This document shows positions 4,651 to 19,571 of a stretch of DNA of 64,000 nt, piece after piece (positions within the stretch are counted from its first letter, which is position 1; each line of letters opens with the position of its first letter). Position numbers and translations under genes: made by a program. A model generated the notes under the pieces. That model made no database searches. It was not told the origin of the DNA and saw nothing but the letters and a program-made list of their open reading frames with translations. This stretch comes from Cyanobacteria bacterium P01_A01_bin.123. Its GTDB lineage: Bacteria > Cyanobacteriota > Cyanobacteriia > Phormidesmidales > Phormidesmidaceae. The stretch is taken from assembly GCA_039815185.1 (NCBI GenBank), contig JBCBZT010000021.1:60192-124191 (forward strand). The letters run 5' to 3'.

Positions 4651-6012
4651 CTAAAAGAACTTGAGGTAGCGTTTGATCTCCCAATCTGAAACATGGGTGT
4701 GGTACTCTTCCCACTCCTGCCGTTTGAAATCGGTGTAGGTTTGGTGCATCAGCGGCCCCATGACTGTTTTCGCTAGGGGATCGGCTTCAAAGGCGTCGAT
4801 CGCCTCTGATAAGGTGCGGGGCAATAGATCAATCCCCATGGTCTCTAATTCATCAAGGGAATACTGATACATATTTTCAGTGTGGGGTTCACCGGGATCG
4901 AGCCCTTCGCGAATGCCTTCTAACCCAGCCGCTAAAATCAGCGCCGCCCCGAGATAAAGATTCGTGGAAATGTCGGCAGCACGGCACTCGACTCGGCCCC
5001 CAGCTAGGGGAATACGGAGCATGTTGGTGCGGTTGTTGTTGCCGTAGCAGATGTATACCGGAGCCCAAGTGAAGCCAGACATGCTGCCCTGGCGCACCAG
5101 TCGCTTATAGCTGTTGACCGTAGGACAGGTCACGGCGACGACTGCTTTAGCATGGCGGAGAACCCCTGCAATAAACTGATAACCGAGTTTTGAGAGCTTG
5201 CAACCGTGCGGATCGTCGGGGTCTTCAAATAGGTTTTTGCCGCTGTCCATATCCGCTAAGGACATGTTGTAGTGTGCCCCGCTACCCGTTTTATCCCCGG
5301 CAATTTTTGGCATAAAGGAGGCGAAGTACCCCTGCTGCCGTGCCAATTCCTTCACCATCAATCGAAAGAAGGTGAGCCGATCAGCCATAGTTAGGGCGTT
5401 GGTGTAGGTGAAGTCCGTTTCAAACTGGCCCTGGGCGTCTTCATGATCGAAGGAATACACATCCCAGCCCAGGTCATTCATGGCGCTGACGATGCTGTCT
5501 AGAATCTTGTAGTTGTCCAGTAGGGTAGGGATATCGTAAGCGGCTTTGGGCAAAATGTCGCGATCGCTGATCGGCCCATAGCTGCCATCCGGATGGTCTT
5601 TAAGAATAAAAAACTCAGTCTCGATACCCAGGTTGAAGGTGTAACCCATCTCTGCGGCTTGGGCCAACACTTGCTTCAAGATTGTGCGGCAGCAGGCGTC
5701 AAACGGTTGTCCCGACAGATATAAATCACTGGCAAACCAAGCCACTTCTGAATTCCACGGCAAAATTGTCACAGTGTCGGGATCGGGCATCGCCGCCACT
5801 TCTTCATCGCTGACCTCTTGGGGTATGCCATCAAGGGCTGCCCCCGTAAACAGTTCTGACCCTGCCATCATCTGCCCCAGATGGGCAAGCGGAACCATTT
5901 TGGCTTTGCACATGCCGTGAATATCGACATAGCTGGCCAGGGCATACTTGACGCCTTTAGCCTCTAAGGAAGCTTTGAGTGAAGCAATTTCAGGGGAGAG
6001 GGATGGGCTCAT
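4651..6012 (-). CDS. GlnT/GmaS-type glutamine synthetase family protein
   Basis: [62 protein letters not shown]. Confidence 0.85.
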
Positions 6013-6018
6013 GGCGTT

Positions 6019-6088
6019 GGGGAGAGGGGGATGGGGAGAGAGGGAGAGGGAGAGGGGGAGAAGGGGGGATGGGGAGAAGGGTTAGGGG
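6019..6088. repeat. G/A-rich short tandem repeat tract (STRR-like)
   Basis: ggggagaggggg atggggagagagggagaggggagagggggagaaggggggatggggagaaggg between ghaA and the GS gene. Confidence 0.7.
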
Positions 6089-6471
6089 ACAAGGGCGGCT
6101 TGGTGAGGGGTGTTGGCTCCAGTGGGGGTGTATTCTATGCGATCGATCTTGAGTTCTCGACCGGAACGGATGTCGTCCATGGGGGCTTGGCAGGTGGGGC
6201 AGGCGTATTGCAGGCCAATTACTGGGCGATAGTCTTGCTGGCAAGCATGGCAAAAGGCGATTAGCGGTGTTTCGGCGATCGCCAGTTCTGCCCCTTCGAG
6301 AAACGTGCCTTGGGTTTGCACGTCAAAGGCAAATTGCAGGCTCACGGGTTCTACACAGGTGAACTGCCCGACGACCAAGTGGATTTTGGCAATCTGGGGC
6401 CGCTCGGGTTGAGACTCCCACCAGTCGCGCACGGTGATGATCAAGGCTTTGGTCATGTCAGTTTCGTGCAT
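6082..6471 (-). CDS. ghaA: HypA-like Ni metallochaperone (guanidine hydrolase accessory)
   Basis: MHE N-terminus, CxxC..CPxC, SGREL. Confidence 0.9.
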   Translation of the reverse strand: MHETDMTKALIITVRDWWESQPERPQIAKIHLVVGQFTCVEPVSLQFAFDVQTQGTFLEGAELAIAETPLIAFCHACQQDYRPVIGLQYACPTCQAPMDDIRSGRELKIDRIEYTPTGANTPHQAALVP

Positions 6472-6479
6472 GGCTGGCG

Positions 6480-7676
6480 TTACTCCCAGGGTGAATCAAC
6501 GGTCATGTCGGCTTCTTCGTTGATGTAGGCGGGGGGCTGCGATCGCGGCAGTTGACCCGAAAGCACCAAATGGGCCATCGTGTCGCAAATCACGCGGGTG
6601 GCCATCAGCGCCGTCATATCGCTGACATCATAGGGGGGCGACACTTCTACGACTTCGATGCCGCACACGGGCACTGCCTGCACAATCCGCTTGAGTAAGT
6701 ACAAGGCTTCGCGAGGCATCAGCCCACCGGGTTCTGGCCAACCTGTGCCGGGGACAAAGCCAGCGTCAATGCAGTCGATATCAAAGCTGATCCACACACA
6801 ATCAGTGCCGTCGGTAGCTTTAGCGATAGCAAAGTCGGCGGCGGCATCCAGGCCCATTTCAGTAATGTCGGTGACGGTGAGAATGTTGGTGGCCCGTTCG
6901 CGGCACACTTTCACCCCTTGACGCGGCACCTGCCAACCGCCAATACCAAGCTGCACCAGGTTTTTAGCCGGGGCATTGGCCATGTTGGTAGCGTGGAACC
7001 AAGGGCAAGTGTGCATCCGTTCATCCAGATCAGTTTCCTGGGTATCCACATGGCGATCAAAGTGGATGATACCCACTTTCTTATCCCCCAGGTGGCGGCA
7101 AATGCCCCGCACCGTGGGGAAACCAATGGAGTGGTCACCGCCCAGCACGATCGGAAAAGCACCCGAACTAAAAATGTGGGCAATGCCCTTAGAGATTTGG
7201 TCAAACGACTTTTCGTTGTTGGCCGGAATGGTGAAGATATCTCCCACATCACATAGGGTGATTTGTTCGCGCAAGTCCACCCCCAATTCAAAGTTGTAGG
7301 GCGTGTAGAGCGCTGAGATGCGGCGAATCCCTTGGGGGCCAAAACGAGTCCCTGGTCGATAGGTGGTGCCTGAGTCGTGGGGTACGCCCACGATGGCCAC
7401 ATCGTATTCGCCGACCTTGTGCACGTCTTCAACATAGGGGGCTTTCAAAAAAGTATTGATGCCCGCATAGTGGGGCAATTCTCCGCGCGAGAAGGTGGAA
7501 ATGCTGCGATCGCGGATACTCTCAGCCGCTTCTAGACCGAACGCTAACCCTTGAGAAACTTCCTGTTGCCAACCCGTCATCGGCAGCTGGTTTTCTTTGG
7601 CGAGGGCACGATTGGCTTCAGTTGAGTCGGGCCTGTCCGAATCAGAAGGCGTTGGTGTGTTTGGCATATCTGTCAT
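6480..7676 (-). CDS. gdmH: Ni-dependent guanidine hydrolase (ureohydrolase family)
   Basis: GGDHS, HFDRHVD, HTCPW, SFDIDCID, PGTGWPEPGG; next to HypA/HypB and a guanidine riboswitch; start set at MTDM behind GGAGG. Confidence 0.9.
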   Translation of the reverse strand: MTDMPNTPTPSDSDRPDSTEANRALAKENQLPMTGWQQEVSQGLAFGLEAAESIRDRSISTFSRGELPHYAGINTFLKAPYVEDVHKVGEYDVAIVGVPHDSGTTYRPGTRFGPQGIRRISALYTPYNFELGVDLREQITLCDVGDIFTIPANNEKSFDQISKGIAHIFSSGAFPIVLGGDHSIGFPTVRGICRHLGDKKVGIIHFDRHVDTQETDLDERMHTCPWFHATNMANAPAKNLVQLGIGGWQVPRQGVKVCRERATNILTVTDITEMGLDAAADFAIAKATDGTDCVWISFDIDCIDAGFVPGTGWPEPGGLMPREALYLLKRIVQAVPVCGIEVVEVSPPYDVSDMTALMATRVICDTMAHLVLSGQLPRSQPPAYINEEADMTVDSPWE

Positions 7677-7734
7677 AGCTGATGCGAATCCTCCAATCTT
7701 GACGAGCAGGCAAAACATAAGTGGGCGGATAATT

Positions 7735-10489: not shown

Positions 10490-10792
10490 TCAAATGAGTG
10501 CGTTGAGCCGTTGAACGATAGGGTTTGAAATTTGGGATTGGATATGGCGATACGTTTGTACAATTTCGCTGACAACCCGATCTTCTACCTCAGCTGCCTG
10601 CTCACGAGAAGCATAGGATCGATAAAGCTCAGGATTCGTATCTGCATTGAATAGTGTTTCAGTGATGTCCTTAAACAGGATTTCATCTATCGGTGTTCCG
10701 ATGTCAACCCATGCCGCCGCATCTTGGAGCCTCAATATTGCCTTGTGGCGAATGAACATGCGAACCGGATAATCGCCGTTGCGCGGCTTCAT
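10490..10792 (-). CDS. Hypothetical 100-aa helical protein, paralog of 12782..13087
   Basis: 24/68 ungapped identities over the C-terminal part with 12782..13087 (manual alignment). Confidence 0.75.
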   Translation of the reverse strand: MKPRNGDYPVRMFIRHKAILRLQDAAAWVDIGTPIDEILFKDITETLFNADTNPELYRSYASREQAAEVEDRVVSEIVQTYRHIQSQISNPIVQRLNALI

Positions 10793-11049
10793 AACGTGCC
10801 TTTGAATTCTTAAGAAAATATTAAAGCATTCATCTTAATCCTTGCAAACCGTGCAAATCTGATTCGCTAGCGACTGCCCAAGCTGCGATCAGTGAAATTA
10901 CCCAGGGGGGTAATGCTGACTCAGAGTTGGGGTTGCCATTATGGGAACGTAGCAAGCCAAAAAGCCCATATCAAAGAGTTAAAGGCTTATGTGTGAGGGC
11001 TTTTAGGGCTTGCCGCACAGACCAAATACGAGAAAAGGATAATTGACTT

Positions 11050-11580
11050 ATGAACCCTGCAATTCCTGTAAGCGGCGCTCAAGCTGACTCTCTGCAATCT
11101 AGCAGTGAGCTGTACACCAAGAACATCTTGGGTCCCTCTTGGTTTGAGTTGTATGACCTGCGCGCTGAAGGCAGTGCTGGCAATCCCCTACCTCCAGTGC
11201 AAGTGGGGCCTGCTCAGTCTCCTTATGTGATCGCTTCTAACGAAGAGTTCACCATGAGTGTGAAAGTTCGCTTCAACCAGTCTCCGCTCACCGCTTTGCT
11301 AATGTGCCTCGGCACCGAAGTGAAGATTAACTTCCACTACGAAGGTTTCGGTGGCAACGCAGTTGAAATCGATCTCTCCGAGACGATCACGACTGAGAAG
11401 GACAAGTACGAATACATCGTCAGTATCACCACTACCCCTGATGCTGCGGGTCTAAATGCCGGCCTGTTTGAATTGGCTGCAACCGCTCAAGTTGGCCCTG
11501 GCCAGAACGAGTGCGCTCAGCACGTCTTCGGCTACGGCTACATCCAAGAGTTCTTGCTTCAGGTTTACCAAGCTATCTAA
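11050..11580 (+). CDS. Hypothetical 176-aa beta-rich (Ig-like) protein, probably highly expressed
   Basis: Alternating beta-strand pattern; C-ending codon bias; RBS AAGGA; no signal peptide. Confidence 0.85.
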   Translation: MNPAIPVSGAQADSLQSSSELYTKNILGPSWFELYDLRAEGSAGNPLPPVQVGPAQSPYVIASNEEFTMSVKVRFNQSPLTALLMCLGTEVKINFHYEGFGGNAVEIDLSETITTEKDKYEYIVSITTTPDAAGLNAGLFELAATAQVGPGQNECAQHVFGYGYIQEFLLQVYQAI

Positions 11581-11599
11581 GCCTAAATAAACCTGTCGT

Positions 11600-11668
11600 C
11601 GGTGGCCCTCCTTAGGGCCGCCGTCAAGTAGCTAACGATTGGTTGCTGGCAGGCTTCGACCTGCCAGC
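11600..11668 (+). terminator. Two tandem intergenic stem-loops (partial terminator or mRNA stabiliser)
   Basis: CGGTGGCCCT-cctt-AGGGCCGCCG (11600-11623) and GCTGGCAGG-cttcga-CCTGCCAGC-TTATT (11645-11668). Confidence 0.7.
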
Positions 11669-11686
11669 TTATTCTCTAGAGGTGTC

Positions 11687-12703
11687 ATGATGGCTCACGC
11701 AGACGCATACCCGTTCCACCCAGCGAATCCAAACCAGGAACTTAAGGTGATTCGAGGTATTGGCCCAGCTAAACAACGATGGCTTAATGCCTTGGGCGTT
11801 GATACAGTTGCAGACCTAGCCCGTTGTCAGCCCCAAACGTTGATCGAACAACTCACCGCGCGCAATCATCGCACCTCTCTAGAAGACGTGAAAGCTTGGA
11901 TTAATCGGGCACAAGCCCTTGAGTCTGCCACAGGATCGACTCAAAGGCCTGCCGCCAACTCAACTGCGCCGAGTATTGCCAACGCAATGCCTGACATGGA
12001 CGGTGCCCAAACTGGAGTACGCCCCAAAACCCTGCCTCTCTTAAAAAACGATTCTCCGGTTGAAAATGGGCGATCGCTGGCGACATTTCAAGTCGAATTG
12101 GTAGCTCATCAAGCTGATGAGGAAGAAATTCTGGAAACGCGTGTTTACCACGGGAAAAGTGATGACGCTGAGACTTGGGAGGGGTTAGCCGATGAAGCGT
12201 TACAACAATGGATGATCGCGCACGTCAACGCACCGAAAGACCCTACGGATATCCCTCCAGTACCAACGGACGATAAACTCTTGGCCACTGTCAAGCTGCC
12301 ACAACTCTCATTGCACCAGGATATCTCGTCTCACCCATCAATGATAGTCGTTGAACCTCGTTATCCTTTTTTGTCGAGCGCGATCGCGTCTGGTCAACCC
12401 TTTAACTTGCAGTTGGCGTTTCAACTGACTGATTTAGAACACTTAGAGCACCCTGACTTACCCACAGAATCGATTCAATATCGTATTCAGGTCAAGGCAT
12501 CTCATCTAGAAACCCAACAAACCACAATGCTGACGGATCAAAAAGCCAGCCTGGTTTATGACACGCCAGAAGCAACTTACTTAAACTCACCTGCATTAGT
12601 CTTGCCTGCTCCTGGCATTTACCGACTCAAGGTAAGTGTCACTGTCCTAAATCTGCCGTCAACCCCCGGACGGTTTATTCTGCCTTTGGTTCAAGCCGCA
12701 TAA
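11687..12703 (+). CDS. HhH (DUF4332-like) domain protein with a middle alpha/beta domain and a C-terminal beta-sandwich
   Basis: LKVIRGIGPAKQRWLNALGVDTVADLA HhH motif; start set at ATG behind AGAGG. Confidence 0.8.
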   Translation: MMAHADAYPFHPANPNQELKVIRGIGPAKQRWLNALGVDTVADLARCQPQTLIEQLTARNHRTSLEDVKAWINRAQALESATGSTQRPAANSTAPSIANAMPDMDGAQTGVRPKTLPLLKNDSPVENGRSLATFQVELVAHQADEEEILETRVYHGKSDDAETWEGLADEALQQWMIAHVNAPKDPTDIPPVPTDDKLLATVKLPQLSLHQDISSHPSMIVVEPRYPFLSSAIASGQPFNLQLAFQLTDLEHLEHPDLPTESIQYRIQVKASHLETQQTTMLTDQKASLVYDTPEATYLNSPALVLPAPGIYRLKVSVTVLNLPSTPGRFILPLVQAA

Positions 12704-12781
12704 GTTCAGTCTTTTAACGTTTGAGTCAATTCCAAAGACTCGGTATAATCTGCTGAATCGTTGCTTTCTTAAGGAAAGATT

Positions 12782-13087
12782 ATGAAGTCGATCAGCGCTA
12801 TGCCGATGAAAGCTGTTGTGTGCTGCAGGGTCAAGCAGGCTTTGCTTAAAGATTTTGAGCCTGATATTCAAAGCTGGCCAGCCCCTTTTGATGATCAATT
12901 GATCAAAGAACTCACGACAACGCTGTATCAATCAGACGACTACCGTAACCGCTATGCAACCTGCACTTCAAAGGCAGCAGCGGCAGCGATCGCAGCAGAT
13001 ATGGTCACTGATATTGCCGCTACCTATCGGGAGATCGAAGCCCGCAAGCAGAATGAGCAGATCCAGCAACTCAATGACTTGATTTAG
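12782..13087 (+). CDS. Hypothetical 101-aa helical protein, paralog of 10490..10792
   Basis: Shared TYR.I..N..Q.LN.LI C-terminus; RBS AAGGA. Confidence 0.75.
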   Translation: MKSISAMPMKAVVCCRVKQALLKDFEPDIQSWPAPFDDQLIKELTTTLYQSDDYRNRYATCTSKAAAAAIAADMVTDIAATYREIEARKQNEQIQQLNDLI

Positions 13088-13215
13088 TCATCAGAGATCC
13101 CAATTATTCGGTTTTAGTTGCCGGATTATCCGATTTTTTGAGCAGTCCATGCCAGGATGCTGCTATGGGTGTTGAATACGCCCTAATTTAGGTTGGCCTG
13201 ATTTCTGGGGATGCT

Positions 13216-14481
13216 ATGGTTGCGCTACTTTCACCTTTAATCATTGACCACAACCGTCTGGATGAGCGGATTCAGCGGCTGGCTAAAATTGGTCGCCAAC
13301 CCAATGGCAGCATTCGTCGGTTGGCCTTCACGCCAGAAATTGTGCGGGCGCGATATTTGGTGCAGCAGTGGATGGTGGAAGCCGGTATGGGTGTCCATGT
13401 TGATGCGGCAGGCAACTTGATTGGACGTTACGAGGGCACCGATCCGACTGCGCCAGCTTTAGCCACCGGGTCGCACATTGATACTGTCCCTTCGGGCGGC
13501 AAATTTGACGGGGTATTGGGGGTGCTCGCAGGGATTGAGGCGGTGCAAATGCTGCGGCAAACTCAGCAGCGCCTCACCCACCCGCTTGAAGTGATTATTT
13601 TCACCGATGAAGAAAATACGATGATTGGCGCGCAGGCGATCGCGGGTACGGCCTATACCCAAGATCCAGAACGCTATCGATCCAAAGCGGGAGAATCGAT
13701 CCAAGACTGTTTAGAGTTAATCGGCGGTAATTGGGATGAGTTGGCAACTGCCCAGCGATCGCGGGCTGATATGGCTGCTTTTATTGAACTGCATGTAGAG
13801 CAGGGAGCGGTCTTAGAGCACTACCAAAAAGAAATTGGCGTGGTGCAGGGCGTTGTCGGCATGCAGCGCAAAATCATTACCATCACCGGGCAGGCTAACC
13901 ATGCGGGCACGACGCCCATGGACATGCGTCAAGATGCCCTGGTGACCGCCGCTGAAATTGTGTTGGCAGTGCGCGATCTGGCCCATGATTTTCCCAAGAG
14001 TCAACCCGTCGCGACGGTGGGTCATTTAGATGTTCTCCCTAATGCCGTCAATATTGTGCCCGGTCGGGTCGAGTTGTCAGTAGACATGCGGGATTTGTCT
14101 GAAGCCTGCCTGCATGAGATGGTGAGTCGTTTGGAAGCAAAAATCGATGCGATCGCTGCCAAAAATCGCACGCCTGTCCAGATCAATCCTGTGCTTTGTG
14201 TTGAACCCACCCTTGCTGCCCCTCAAATTCAGACCACGATTGAAGGCATCTGCCAAAGGTTAAATCTAAGCTACTGTTCGCTACCGAGTCGTGCCGGACA
14301 CGATGCCCTGGAGATGGGACGGATTACGGATATGGGGATGATTTTTGTGCCGAGTCAGCACGGTATCAGCCACTCTGAAGCAGAGTATACGTCGCCGGAG
14401 CAATGTACGGCTGGGGCTAATGTTTTGCTACAAACGTTTTTGGAATTGGACAAGCTGTATGCGGCCAATCTTAGGTTTTAG
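13216..14481 (+). CDS. M20 Zn-dependent amidohydrolase (allantoate amidohydrolase / N-carbamoylase family)
   Basis: GSHIDTVP.GG.FDG, DEE, ELHVEQG, NHAGTTPM, AGHDA, GISHS. Confidence 0.92.
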   Translation: MVALLSPLIIDHNRLDERIQRLAKIGRQPNGSIRRLAFTPEIVRARYLVQQWMVEAGMGVHVDAAGNLIGRYEGTDPTAPALATGSHIDTVPSGGKFDGVLGVLAGIEAVQMLRQTQQRLTHPLEVIIFTDEENTMIGAQAIAGTAYTQDPERYRSKAGESIQDCLELIGGNWDELATAQRSRADMAAFIELHVEQGAVLEHYQKEIGVVQGVVGMQRKIITITGQANHAGTTPMDMRQDALVTAAEIVLAVRDLAHDFPKSQPVATVGHLDVLPNAVNIVPGRVELSVDMRDLSEACLHEMVSRLEAKIDAIAAKNRTPVQINPVLCVEPTLAAPQIQTTIEGICQRLNLSYCSLPSRAGHDALEMGRITDMGMIFVPSQHGISHSEAEYTSPEQCTAGANVLLQTFLELDKLYAANLRF

Positions 14482-17685: not shown

Positions 17686-18648
17686 TTAACGATTTTTTGG
17701 CAGTTTCTTTTTGGTCGCCTTGGTCGTCGCCACCGCTTTCGGGTAGACCTTAAATTTATCCATTGCCTGACTGGCCGCTGCAACCACCGCCATATCAGAA
17801 TCACGCAGTGCCCGTTTGAGCAACGGGATCACCTGACGCGATCGCGTTTCGGCCAAAGCTTCCACTGCTGACAGCCTCACAGCGGGATCACTATCTTGAC
17901 AAAGCTTGGCTAATAATGGCATCGCCTTCTTGGTTTCTGCCCGCAAGGGTTGCTTTAAGACGGCTTTGCAGGCGACAGCAATCTGTTGCCGTTTGGCACT
18001 ATCGGGTTCGGTGCCCTCACGCATCATTTGAGAAAATGCAGGCAAGGTCAATGATGTTGCAGACGTTGTTACAACAGGGACTGACTGAGCTGCAGAAACA
18101 ACCGGAACCTCTGAAGCAATATCGTCAGGAGTAATATCGTCAGGGTTGGCTTGAGCCGCTCCAGCTCCAGCGCTAATTGGCGAACCAGTGTCAGTACTGG
18201 GGGGAGTAGGTGTGGCGATCGCAGCGTCAACTGGTGCAGCGGTAATAACTGCATTACGATTGGAGTCAACCTGGTGTTGGAGGCTTTCAATTTCTGTCTT
18301 TAAGGTCATGACTTCAGCATGTGAGGCAGTTACCTCAGCCTTTAAGGTCACAACTTCAGCCTTGGAAGCAGTGGCCCTAGCCTTCAAGGTGGAGACTTCA
18401 TCGTGATGGGTTTTCTGCGTTTGTGCCTGGGCGTCTGCAATCCCTTGGGTTAAACGTTGGTCATAATCCTGCTGGAGCTGGCGCGTCGCGTCTTGGAGAC
18501 GTTTGTTGTGTTCTTGTTCCAGTTGTTGAATGCGGGTGCGACTCCGTTGCAGTGCTTCGTTCTTTTCGACAATTTGGGACTGCGACCAGAAATAAACCAG
18601 CAGCGCCGCAAGCAGGCAGCCAACAATCAACCCAATGATAAACGCCAT
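17686..18648 (-). CDS. Membrane-anchored coiled-coil protein with C-terminal HEAT repeats
   Basis: N-terminal TM helix, heptads, DSDPAVRLSAVEAL / DSDMAVVAAASQA. Confidence 0.8.
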   Translation of the reverse strand: MAFIIGLIVGCLLAALLVYFWSQSQIVEKNEALQRSRTRIQQLEQEHNKRLQDATRQLQQDYDQRLTQGIADAQAQTQKTHHDEVSTLKARATASKAEVVTLKAEVTASHAEVMTLKTEIESLQHQVDSNRNAVITAAPVDAAIATPTPPSTDTGSPISAGAGAAQANPDDITPDDIASEVPVVSAAQSVPVVTTSATSLTLPAFSQMMREGTEPDSAKRQQIAVACKAVLKQPLRAETKKAMPLLAKLCQDSDPAVRLSAVEALAETRSRQVIPLLKRALRDSDMAVVAAASQAMDKFKVYPKAVATTKATKKKLPKNR

Positions 18649-18932
18649 AAGTCACCTCTAAAATCTACAACGCTCCATGGCAGATGTGTCTCAGCGCTCG
18701 ATGGCAGATAGCCTGATTGTCCGTAAGCTATGTTAATCAAGCCGAGACAACGCATTGAGCCTTGTAACGGGTACGTCAGGCTGCGCCATGACACTACAGC
18801 GTCGCCTATTAATGGCTACCGACTTAGCGCATAATGCAGAGTGCTATCAAACACTGCGGTCTATCTAGTTTGCCAGAGTTGAGGCGAGACTGACCTTGTC
18901 AATGCCCATAACTTCAAGCTTCGCTACATTTT

Positions 18933-19571
18933 TCAATCGACGACTTGAGACTGTTTGACCACATCCACTCGGGTTTCATATTCTGCTTCCAGTTCGGCGA
19001 GACGTAGGGCAAATTGGTCTTGGTAATGCTCAATGGTTTTAGCCAACTGTTGGTTATAGTCTTGCTTAAGCTGGGATTGCTTCGCTTGAATTTGCGCCAA
19101 TTTATTGGCGTAGCGCTTTTCATAGAGTTTCTGGAGACGATGGGCAACTTCTTTGAGCCGTTGGTTGTACTCTTCCTCAAGCGCTTTAACCTCAGGAGAT
19201 AATGACGCTGGAGGGTGCTCAGTTTGGGCAAGCTGATCTGAACCCGTAACTGCGATCGCAGGATTAGCTGCATCATGGTTCATCCCCAAAACAGATATGC
19301 GGGCTTCATATTCTTCCTGGAGCTGAGCATTACGCAGGGCAAGCTGATCTTGATAGTGCTCAATGGTTTCGGTCAGGCGGGCTTCATAGTTTTGCCGCAA
19401 ACGCTTCGTTGCCGAAGCCAAATGCTGATCATGACTTTTTGAAAGTTGTTGATTTTTATATTGAGCTTGCCTGAGCAAGGCTTTTTGACGACGATTTTGC
19501 TGCTGTTGCCACCCGTAAATTAAGGCTGCTACGACCAGTCCAATGAGCAATCCAATCAGTAGCCACGCCAT
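18933..19571 (-). CDS. Membrane-anchored coiled-coil protein with an internal duplication
   Basis: N-terminal TM helix; TIEHYQDQ(L/F)ALR.A.L..EYE.R occurs twice. Confidence 0.8.
   Translation of the reverse strand: MAWLLIGLLIGLVVAALIYGWQQQQNRRQKALLRQAQYKNQQLSKSHDQHLASATKRLRQNYEARLTETIEHYQDQLALRNAQLQEEYEARISVLGMNHDAANPAIAVTGSDQLAQTEHPPASLSPEVKALEEEYNQRLKEVAHRLQKLYEKRYANKLAQIQAKQSQLKQDYNQQLAKTIEHYQDQFALRLAELEAEYETRVDVVKQSQVVD

Follow-up and report, generated by a model that had tools for sequence, protein, structure and literature searches.

A modular cyanobacterial gene cassette encoding predicted immunoglobulin-like proteins under a conserved promoter

Four small genes, here named A to D, are flanked by genes of the cobQ and M20 peptidase types (Pfam) in a window of 64,000 nucleotides from Cyanobacteria bacterium P01_A01_bin.123 (contig JBCBZT010000021.1, positions 60,192 to 124,191), the whole stretch of DNA that was analysed. 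Comparison with related loci indicates that they are part of a genuine modular system that has not been described before. It has a conserved promoter of its own and a plausible regulon, and a mechanism may be inferred for it. All four open reading frames (ORFs) reported in an earlier, sequence-only reading were found in place (Table 1). Its failure to recognise a characterised operon also holds, as no named family, structure or literature description was found. The whole stretch is covered by contigs of another study's run with approximately 2–4% differences, one spanning 10644–12297 and one 12325–13600; the gene order is therefore unlikely to be an assembly artefact.

Distribution and Modular Organisation

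In a phylum-wide sample of 401 genomes, the profile of protein B matched 5 (6 with a wider profile); in the order to which the window belongs, it matched 67 of 173 genomes. Of the same 173 genomes, 63 have A and 48 have the C-type domain, some weak matches to the latter being genes of a paralogous family, E. The genes co-occur, as the sequence-only reading had proposed to check: B is also present in 52 of the 63 A-positive genomes and in 44 of the 48 with the C-type domain. In one genus of 53 genomes, 23 have A together with an immunoglobulin (Ig)-domain gene, 23 have neither and 7 have one only.

The neighbourhoods were compared in 68 loci centred on a profile match, namely the window locus, L001, L010–L015 and 60 regions hand-chosen from 87 places. 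They contain A (33 loci), C (33), a SUKH gene, S (26), a regulator gene, R (39), and E (15), with A and C together in only nine. Three layouts recur, B(-B)-A, R-B-C-S-R and R-X-C-S-A-E, and many loci hold B and A only; B is in tandem in 5/68, the copies mostly having a promoter each. The fixed four-gene unit that was first supposed did not survive this survey. The exact order A-B-C-D was seen in the window locus alone among the 68. The cassette is modular, its fuller forms adding a regulator, a SMI1/KNR4 protein and further Ig paralogues, and the window carries a reduced form of it in which A is present twice. In L062 the order cobQ, A, B, C is found again, while L127 keeps A and C without B and L119 keeps A alone. 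The same genome (G000) contains a second B gene (contig C15), an E gene (C1) and R-like genes at three places; S is absent from the window locus and was not found in the genome.

The second B gene (locus L015, G000:C15:97382-106182) is strongly codon-biased, has no promoter box and stands between a short LuxR-type helix-turn-helix (HTH) gene and an NB-ARC/WD40-like gene, which is followed by a 1197-aa HhH-containing unknown. Next come ParM-like and relaxase-like genes, which suggests a mobile region. The E gene is an orphan Ig paralogue with a basic C-terminal tail (G000:C1:4386-4877, reverse strand) and overlaps end to end with a gene of the NAD-dependent epimerase type. In L081 (8905-10388) and L121 (1787-3239), a pair of genes for an M4 peptidase and an emfourin inhibitor is placed between a SUKH-M-Ig gene and A; in L113 (8309-11794), the same cassette position is occupied by an 807-aa TPR-like gene and a NUDIX gene. 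Locus L120 (9386-12381) holds a decaying cassette with X, C, S and R each in pieces.

In R-X-C-S-A-E loci, the B position is taken by X, a divergent member of the superfamily. This slot is polymorphic within conserved flanks. Between L101 and L104, the identity is 23% for X and 21% for C, versus 92% for E, 93% for R and 79% for S, and the pair L103–L120 and further pairs resemble this pattern (11 loci compared, some incomplete). The identities of X and C do not track each other closely (L101–L117, 48% for X and 27% for C; L112–L117, 30% and 55%), so strict cognate pairing of the two proteins is not supported.

Relationships and Domains of the Module Proteins

The motifs from which the sequence-only reading deduced a kinship between B and the C-terminal part of C are present (IASNEEF/IASGQPF, GLFELAATAQV/GIYRLKVSVTV and LLQV/LVQA). 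Pairwise BLASTP did not match the two proteins (E-value 1.9), and their direct profile comparison is weak (48%, E-value 1.8e-4). The link is provided by E, a third Ig paralogue family found beside many B genes: it is matched by B (99.2%, E-value 5.5e-20) and in turn matches the domain at the C-terminus of C (96.5%, E-value 9.5e-10, 130 columns). B and this domain are thus supported, transitively, as distant homologues. Across the superfamily, the Ig domain is found under varied N-terminal modules, as HhH-M-Ig, SUKH-M-Ig, M-Ig or Ig alone. In a tree of 73 domains, which contains several long branches, B, E and the fused domains of C and S each fall on one side of a well-supported branch (100/100 for the fused domains), and X proteins are scattered between.

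Protein C begins with a helix-hairpin-helix (HhH) domain (DUF4332-type match, E-value 1e-7), which also weakly matches extensions of L21 and other proteins and is absent from several C homologues. A match of C to CIS12 (E-value 0.066) is confined to this domain and lies far below the cut-off. The two-domain view of C needs correction, as a third, middle domain of 55 residues (M) follows; by eye, it is small, with three strands and a helix. S, found in the loci of relatives, is a SMI1/KNR4 (SUKH) protein (PF09346, E-values 2e-9 to 4e-11), which often terminates in M and the same Ig domain as C; its SUKH part alone matches Streptomyces plasmid genes. R combines a PAS-like domain with a LuxR-type HTH (GerE, E-value 3.5e-8). 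No enzyme, NTPase or toxin domain was found in the module proteins with Pfam and NCBIfam, and no Pfam family was found for E and X proteins.

A and D, claimed earlier to be paralogues, are indeed related: they align without gaps, with 24 of 67 columns identical (36%, E-value 1e-11). Their family comprises 37 ORFs in 33 of the 68 loci, and 28 of these ORFs were aligned. The AlphaFold2 model of A has five helices, with a predicted local distance difference test score (pLDDT) of 82.7. No sequence relative of A was found in Pfam, NCBIfam or the PDB, its fold matches (best E-value 3.4, best Z 5.8) are unusable and the Atlas gave no match. D has no Pfam or NCBIfam family, its weak HpaR match reaching 19 bits against a cut-off of 121.

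Predicted Structure of Protein B

No sequence match to B was found in Pfam (E-value ≤ 0.1), NCBIfam or the PDB, and its 27 close homologues are cyanobacterial wherever named. The AlphaFold model, built on an alignment of 26 sequences, is a beta-sandwich (pLDDT 81.9) with seven long strands, and an Ig-like fold is predicted. Residues 8–23 have a pLDDT below 50. The N-terminal arm is disordered in the monomer model but conserved, with a segment ExYxxNILGP in which E20, Y22, G28 and P29 are kept; the fused Ig domains of C and S do not have this arm. The best structural neighbours are C-terminal domains of Wzt, 6o14 (Z 9.4, root-mean-square deviation (rmsd) 3.4, 116 residues aligned) and 2r5o (Z 9.0, rmsd 2.7, 117 aligned). 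Foldseek matched the pilin AggA (4ph8, E-value 2.9e-4, template modelling (TM) score 0.40) and, weakly, the Ig-like AGS-C domain of a Pycsar cyclase (9ard, E-value 2.4e-3). Comparison with viral folds gave nothing at an E-value ≤ 0.001. The Atlas returned unnamed clusters only, one of them, found by structure, mostly from Actinomycetota (TM scores 0.67/0.81). B had no match in phage or plasmid collections, and two distant members of its family had none in plasmid collections.

Cys86 and Cys155 are invariant in B. Among 186 superfamily sequences, 114 have both cysteines, 69 neither and 3 only one. The invariant pair hints that B may reside at an oxidising place rather than strictly in the cytoplasm. 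The claimed lack of a signal peptide and of membrane helices agrees with the maximal 19-residue hydropathy of 0.67–1.33, which is a hydropathy check and not a signal-peptide prediction. B, C, A and D have no N-terminal hydrophobic stretch; over 10-residue segments, a value above 2.0 is reached by 2 of 69 B ORFs.

Promoter and Candidate Regulon

Word counting revealed AGTACCC upstream of B in 24 of 63 non-redundant regions versus 5 of 337 background regions. The word is one half of an inverted repeat, RGTACCC-N4/5-GGGTRAT, which is followed after 18–20 nt by nine-mers resembling TGCCATGAT. This spacing is kept in 59/59 sites, and the A and the last-position T are invariant. A weight matrix, trained on the regions that it scores, gave at least 14 for 59 of the 63 B upstream regions and for 0 of 80 shuffles; the four misses include the second B of the genome, and X loci retain a variant site. 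In the window, the box and the -10-like element (TGCCATTAT) constitute the best site of the genome (score 35.8). Elsewhere in the module the site is rare (C 2/43, S 0/38, A 2/57, E 4/23, R 5/67); four of the five R sites, in 4 loci of one genus, score 32–34 and are distinct from those of B. A sigma-70 scan stayed at the chance level, and the box does not fit the LexA, NtcA or HetR consensus sequences.

In the 173 genomes, a strict pattern gave 68 matches in 44 genomes, compared with 7 for the reversed control; by coordinates, 29 precede B and 1 precedes R in the module. A stricter pattern applied to 10 genomes missed known sites. Of the remaining 38 matches, 19 were taken, together with one further site, to read the genes downstream, and the following tallies of these 20 hold among the matches listed. 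The first gene encodes a haem peroxidase at four sites and a TPR-CHAT or CHAT-CHASE2 protein at three, in one case followed by a caspase gene; at three more, a small unknown gene precedes a TPS-domain gene. Two sites stand before a large operon of unknown genes, one before an unknown gene with a TIR gene behind it, one each before genes for a BTRD1-repeat protein and an FAD oxidoreductase, and two before other unknowns; three have no convincing target. In the window's own genome, weaker sites are found ahead of a hydrolase gene, a TPR-CHAT gene, two large unknown genes and a DUF1822/CHAT-CHASE2 operon.

Several of these targets deserve mention in their own right. Animal-type haem peroxidase genes follow the promoter in L187, L188, L195 and L185, and one genus has a near-identical site in 15 of its genomes, some of which, several in number, lack a B match. 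In L176 (584-3181) and L190 (1224-7901), an operon of large proteins (865–888, 538 and 630 aa) stands behind the promoter, divergent from a related gene; the proteins scanned have no Pfam match, and the operon is an undescribed system in its own right. Beta-rich unknowns of about 104 aa lie directly behind the promoter, ahead of TPS-domain and CHAT genes, in L180 (1127-1519), L184 (377-688) and L194 (1219-1533).

The NarL site is described as 7-2-7, TACCCCTAAAGGGGTA, with activating NarL sites placed at -38 to -49 (PMC4549865). The box is similar in its half-site TACCC and in its location near -43, while its half-sites are 1–2 nt closer (7-0-7 or 7-1-7). R shares the GerE HTH with these regulators but has a PAS-like domain instead of a receiver domain. 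Because its HTH belongs to the family of NarL, R can be considered the likely reader of the box and the likely activator of B.

Signs of Bulk Production of B

In the window, 28 of the 36 F/Y/I/N codons of B end in C, against a genome mean of 0.39, which places B at rank 6 of 5034 genes (binomial p 2.6e-6; 0.013 corrected). The second B of the genome is at rank 15, and the genes near B in the ranking are presumably psbA, nifH and phycobiliprotein-like genes. The codon usage of A, C and D is near the genome mean. Across the loci, codon bias above the local background was found for B in 53/69 cases, for HhH-containing C in 10/26, S in 16/37, A in 21/56 and R in 10/66; at four-fold sites B and all its partners are GC-poorer, despite the C-ending bias of B. 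The double hairpin 3′ of B in the window has a z value of −3.9, and downstream values below −2 occur for B in 42/69 cases, compared with 1/44 for C and 0/37 for S. A biased gene with a 3′ hairpin and unbiased partners is the pattern expected of an operon in which a single structural gene yields an abundant product and the genes behind it yield less. The proposal that B is the major and C the minor subunit receives indirect support from the codon bias, B's own promoter and the B–C hairpin, and B would be made in large excess over C.

Proposed Mechanism and Alternatives

The promoter, the co-occurrence of the genes, the shared domain, the codon bias and the polymorphism were all obtained by comparison, and from them assembly, binding by R, location and purpose may be inferred. 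The reading that we prefer, at a confidence just short of even, is that the cassette encodes an inducible and abundant Ig-fold polymer with minor, cargo-bearing subunits, serving in defence or the damage response. R would bind the conserved box and, with the -10 region, activate B, whose product would greatly outnumber C. The N-terminal arm of each B subunit may dock on the next one to give a fibre or a lattice, and on oxidation the Cys86/Cys155 pair might lock the fold or the polymer. C and S could enter the polymer through the shared Ig domain, capping or decorating it and displaying HhH, M or SUKH, and A/D, which travel with Ig genes, may act as an assembly chaperone or an anchor. The promoter shared with CHAT/caspase, haem peroxidase and TPS genes would make this part of a joint response to attack or cell damage. 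A context of biological conflict, suggested by the SMI1/KNR4 genes of 26/68 loci, the polymorphic slot, the M4 peptidase/emfourin inserts and the co-regulated genes, is counted in favour of this reading. Of the candidates named at the outset, the filament and the stress or defence complex have gained support, and the shell and the nucleoid-associated complex have not.

A number of observations weigh against such a polymer and its regulation. B occurs without C in 35 of the 68 loci and without any partner within the fetched stretch in 8; kin are not independent in any of the counts, and many assemblies are incomplete. There is no R gene at the window locus, and R-like genes lie elsewhere in the genome and also occur apart from any Ig gene. 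The strand set of the B model is complete, so the fold does not demand strand donation, and its structural matches are generic, Ig-like and tied with many others, including some soluble ligand-binding domains. The co-occurrence of the cysteines largely tracks one clade. The promoter matrix may owe part of its score to its training set, and the sites of the window's genome other than that of B score at most 25.6, near the shuffled background (at least 20: 19 real versus 7). The top of the codon ranking also holds apparent chance entries, and the bias of B is absent or negative in 16/69 cases, many of the R-B-C-S-R type. By iterative codon adaptation index, B ranks only 687 of 6424; this measure was uninformative, and its reference set had drifted towards genes with no sign of high expression.

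The strongest alternative is a soluble sensor or adaptor system acting in conflicts. Here the Ig domains would bind variable ligands or dock homotypically, and would recruit HhH and SUKH effectors when a foreign molecule is bound, with no long polymer. We hold it to be possible, if rather unlikely. The polymorphic B slot with conserved flanks (L101 versus L104), the single domain common to several neighbours, the weak match to the AGS-C domain of Pycsar (9ard) and the CHAT/caspase and TIR genes of the regulon would all suit it, as would the role of SUKH as the commonest immunity domain of polymorphic toxin systems (PMC3482391). However, the module proteins scanned contain no enzyme, NTPase or toxin domain, many loci have only B and A, and the signs of very high expression, together with the tandem duplication of B, suit a structural protein better. 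A bolder, unlikely version of the preferred polymer is a bacterial clot or trap. The inducible, allele-swapped Ig protein would be stockpiled in the cytoplasm of cyanobacterial filaments, to polymerise once a cell has been ruptured or co-regulated caspase-like proteases have killed it; oxidation would cross-link it, with the Cys pair and co-regulated haem peroxidases involved, the SUKH and HhH modules on display would neutralise the attacker, and the box would mark a danger-response regulon not recognised before.

The remaining explanations are weaker. In one, B would form the coat of a closed protein shell or a storage compartment, and C and S would be cargo targeted to its lumen or surface. 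The major/minor asymmetry and the fusion of cargo to a coat-like domain would suit such a structure no less than a fibre, but no enzyme cargo recurs as a neighbour and the predicted topology resembles Ig domains rather than known shell proteins (though absence from the fold lists is not decisive); this reading is decidedly unlikely. Still less probable is a nucleoid-associated or DNA-protecting complex scaffolded by B, to which the HhH of C and M, whose pattern by eye is one seen in some DNA-binding domains, would contribute DNA binding. Several C homologues lack HhH, half of the loci lack C, B looks acidic on inspection and keeps its Cys pair, and the co-regulated genes are not DNA-protection genes. 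Least credible of all is the idea that the module supplies accessory parts or cargo to an extracellular contractile injection system (eCIS). The window's genome has two eCIS-type clusters (G000:C96:37279-55986 and G000:C9:55450-71070) with tube, baseplate-like and eCIS_core proteins, a promoter-like site (score 25.3) precedes a hydrolase gene near an eCIS_core gene, and the CIS12 match might point the same way; yet that match is limited to HhH and sub-threshold, no viral fold resembles B at the threshold given above, and tube, sheath and baseplate families are missing both from the region around the module in the window and from the 30 neighbour families that are commonest in the 68 loci.

Comparison with Known Systems

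The closest parallel to the preferred polymer is offered by the endospore appendages of Bacillus, F-ENA (DUF4183) and S-ENA (Ena1/Ena2), in which a small beta-sandwich major subunit is polymerised through a conserved N-terminal hook, the minor protein F-Anchor ends in a subunit domain and Ena1/2 have conserved cysteines (PMC11844507). The proposed hook of B, the C-terminal subunit domain in its minor partners and the cysteines would be the counterparts of these features. Neither Pfam nor the fold lists matched the module to the DUF3992/DUF4183 subunits (though absence from the fold lists is not decisive); B is predicted to be Ig-like, there are no spores or collagen-like partners, the polymer is a prediction, and B is accompanied by HhH, SUKH and helical proteins, with a promoter of the LuxR type. 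The named homologues are cyanobacterial, and neither a spore-forming Firmicutes host nor an exosporium anchor was found.

Chaperone-usher tip subunits consist of a cargo domain followed by a pilin domain, a layout paralleled by C. Donor-strand Ig-fold fibres, both of this type, such as AggA (4ph8), and of the TasA type, also share with B an Ig-like subunit with an N-terminal extension, but the module has no signal peptide by hydropathy, the monomer model of B appears to be missing no strand and the AggA match is no better than those to unrelated Ig domains; no usher or periplasmic chaperone is present in the window or among the recurrent neighbours of the 68 loci. Polymorphic toxin-immunity systems (PMC3482391) resemble the cassette in their SUKH genes, which in the cassette are sometimes in tandem, and in the swapping of neighbouring genes inside a conserved frame. 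The cassette differs in having no toxin domain or export system and in the fusion of SUKH to M and Ig: upstream of SUKH, no toxin with a trafficking domain and a variable toxin tip at its C-terminus was found, HhH-M-Ig or B being in that place, and no toxin family was detected in the proteins scanned. The carbohydrate-binding domain of Wzt (PF14524), although the best structural neighbour of B, is only 13–14% identical and tied with many Ig folds, and B is free-standing, with no ABC transporter. Microcompartment and encapsulin proteins are not represented, with no BMC-H/T/P or HK97 match in Pfam, NCBIfam or PDB sequences and a beta-sandwich model. On the features compared, the module does not qualify as pili, a shell, a toxin-immunity pair or an eCIS. 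A jelly-roll compartment of Acaryochloris, a first guess, was dropped, since no literature support was found and the model is Ig-like.

The literature search found no description of the module; most subscription papers lay outside its coverage. The main text of PMC7159879 mentions no SUKH, HhH, immunoglobulin or peroxidase, and the supplements of PMC7159879 and PMC3482391 could list such loci.

Coordinates and Neighbouring Genes

The features of the locus are collected in Table 1. C probably starts at the ATG at 11687 rather than at the TTG at 11639, because the second hairpin would occupy the stretch between them; a simple scan gives about three such hairpins by chance in the region. A sigma-70-like site before D (12721-12749, 10/12), from a scan at the chance level, suggests that D may have its own promoter. 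Further away, glutamine-synthetase-like, HypA-like and agmatinase-like genes (4651-7718) show no link to the module, and two adjoining genes (17686-19571) each encode an N-terminal membrane anchor and long coiled-coil-like repeats.

Table 1. Features of the A–D locus (positions in the window).
Feature	Position	Strand	Description
Gene A	10490-10792	-	100-aa all-helical protein, unnamed family, divergent from B
Inverted-repeat box ATTACCC-aggg-GGGTAAT	10897-10914	+	Predicted activator site; consensus RGTACCC-N4/5-GGGTRAT
Extended -10-like element TGCCATTAT	10934-10942	+	19 nt after the box; predicted B promoter
Gene B	11050-11580	+	176-aa predicted Ig-like beta-sandwich, predicted major subunit
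GC-rich stem-loop	11600-11623	+	Immediately 3′ of B; predicted mRNA stabiliser or attenuator; region z −3.9
Second stem-loop, T-rich tail	11645-11668	+	Terminator-like; ahead of the likely C start
Gene C	11687-12703	+	HhH, linker, M, Ig-like C-terminal domain; predicted minor subunit
HhH domain of C (approx.)	11735-11923
M domain of C (approx.)	12071-12235
Ig-like C-terminal domain of C (approx.)	12260-12697		B/E homologue
Gene D	12782-13087	+	101-aa, A paralogue

Significance

In the libraries searched, B, E, A/D, M and the C-terminal domain of C have neither a family entry nor a relative of solved structure, although about 40% of the genomes of one cyanobacterial order carry the module. If B polymerises, it would represent a new class of signal-peptide-free Ig-fold polymer with swappable cargo subunits. 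Independently of any polymer, the promoter offers a handle on when the caspase-like CHAT proteins, haem peroxidases and TPS exoproteins of these cyanobacteria are switched on, and so bears on the response of multicellular bacteria to attack.

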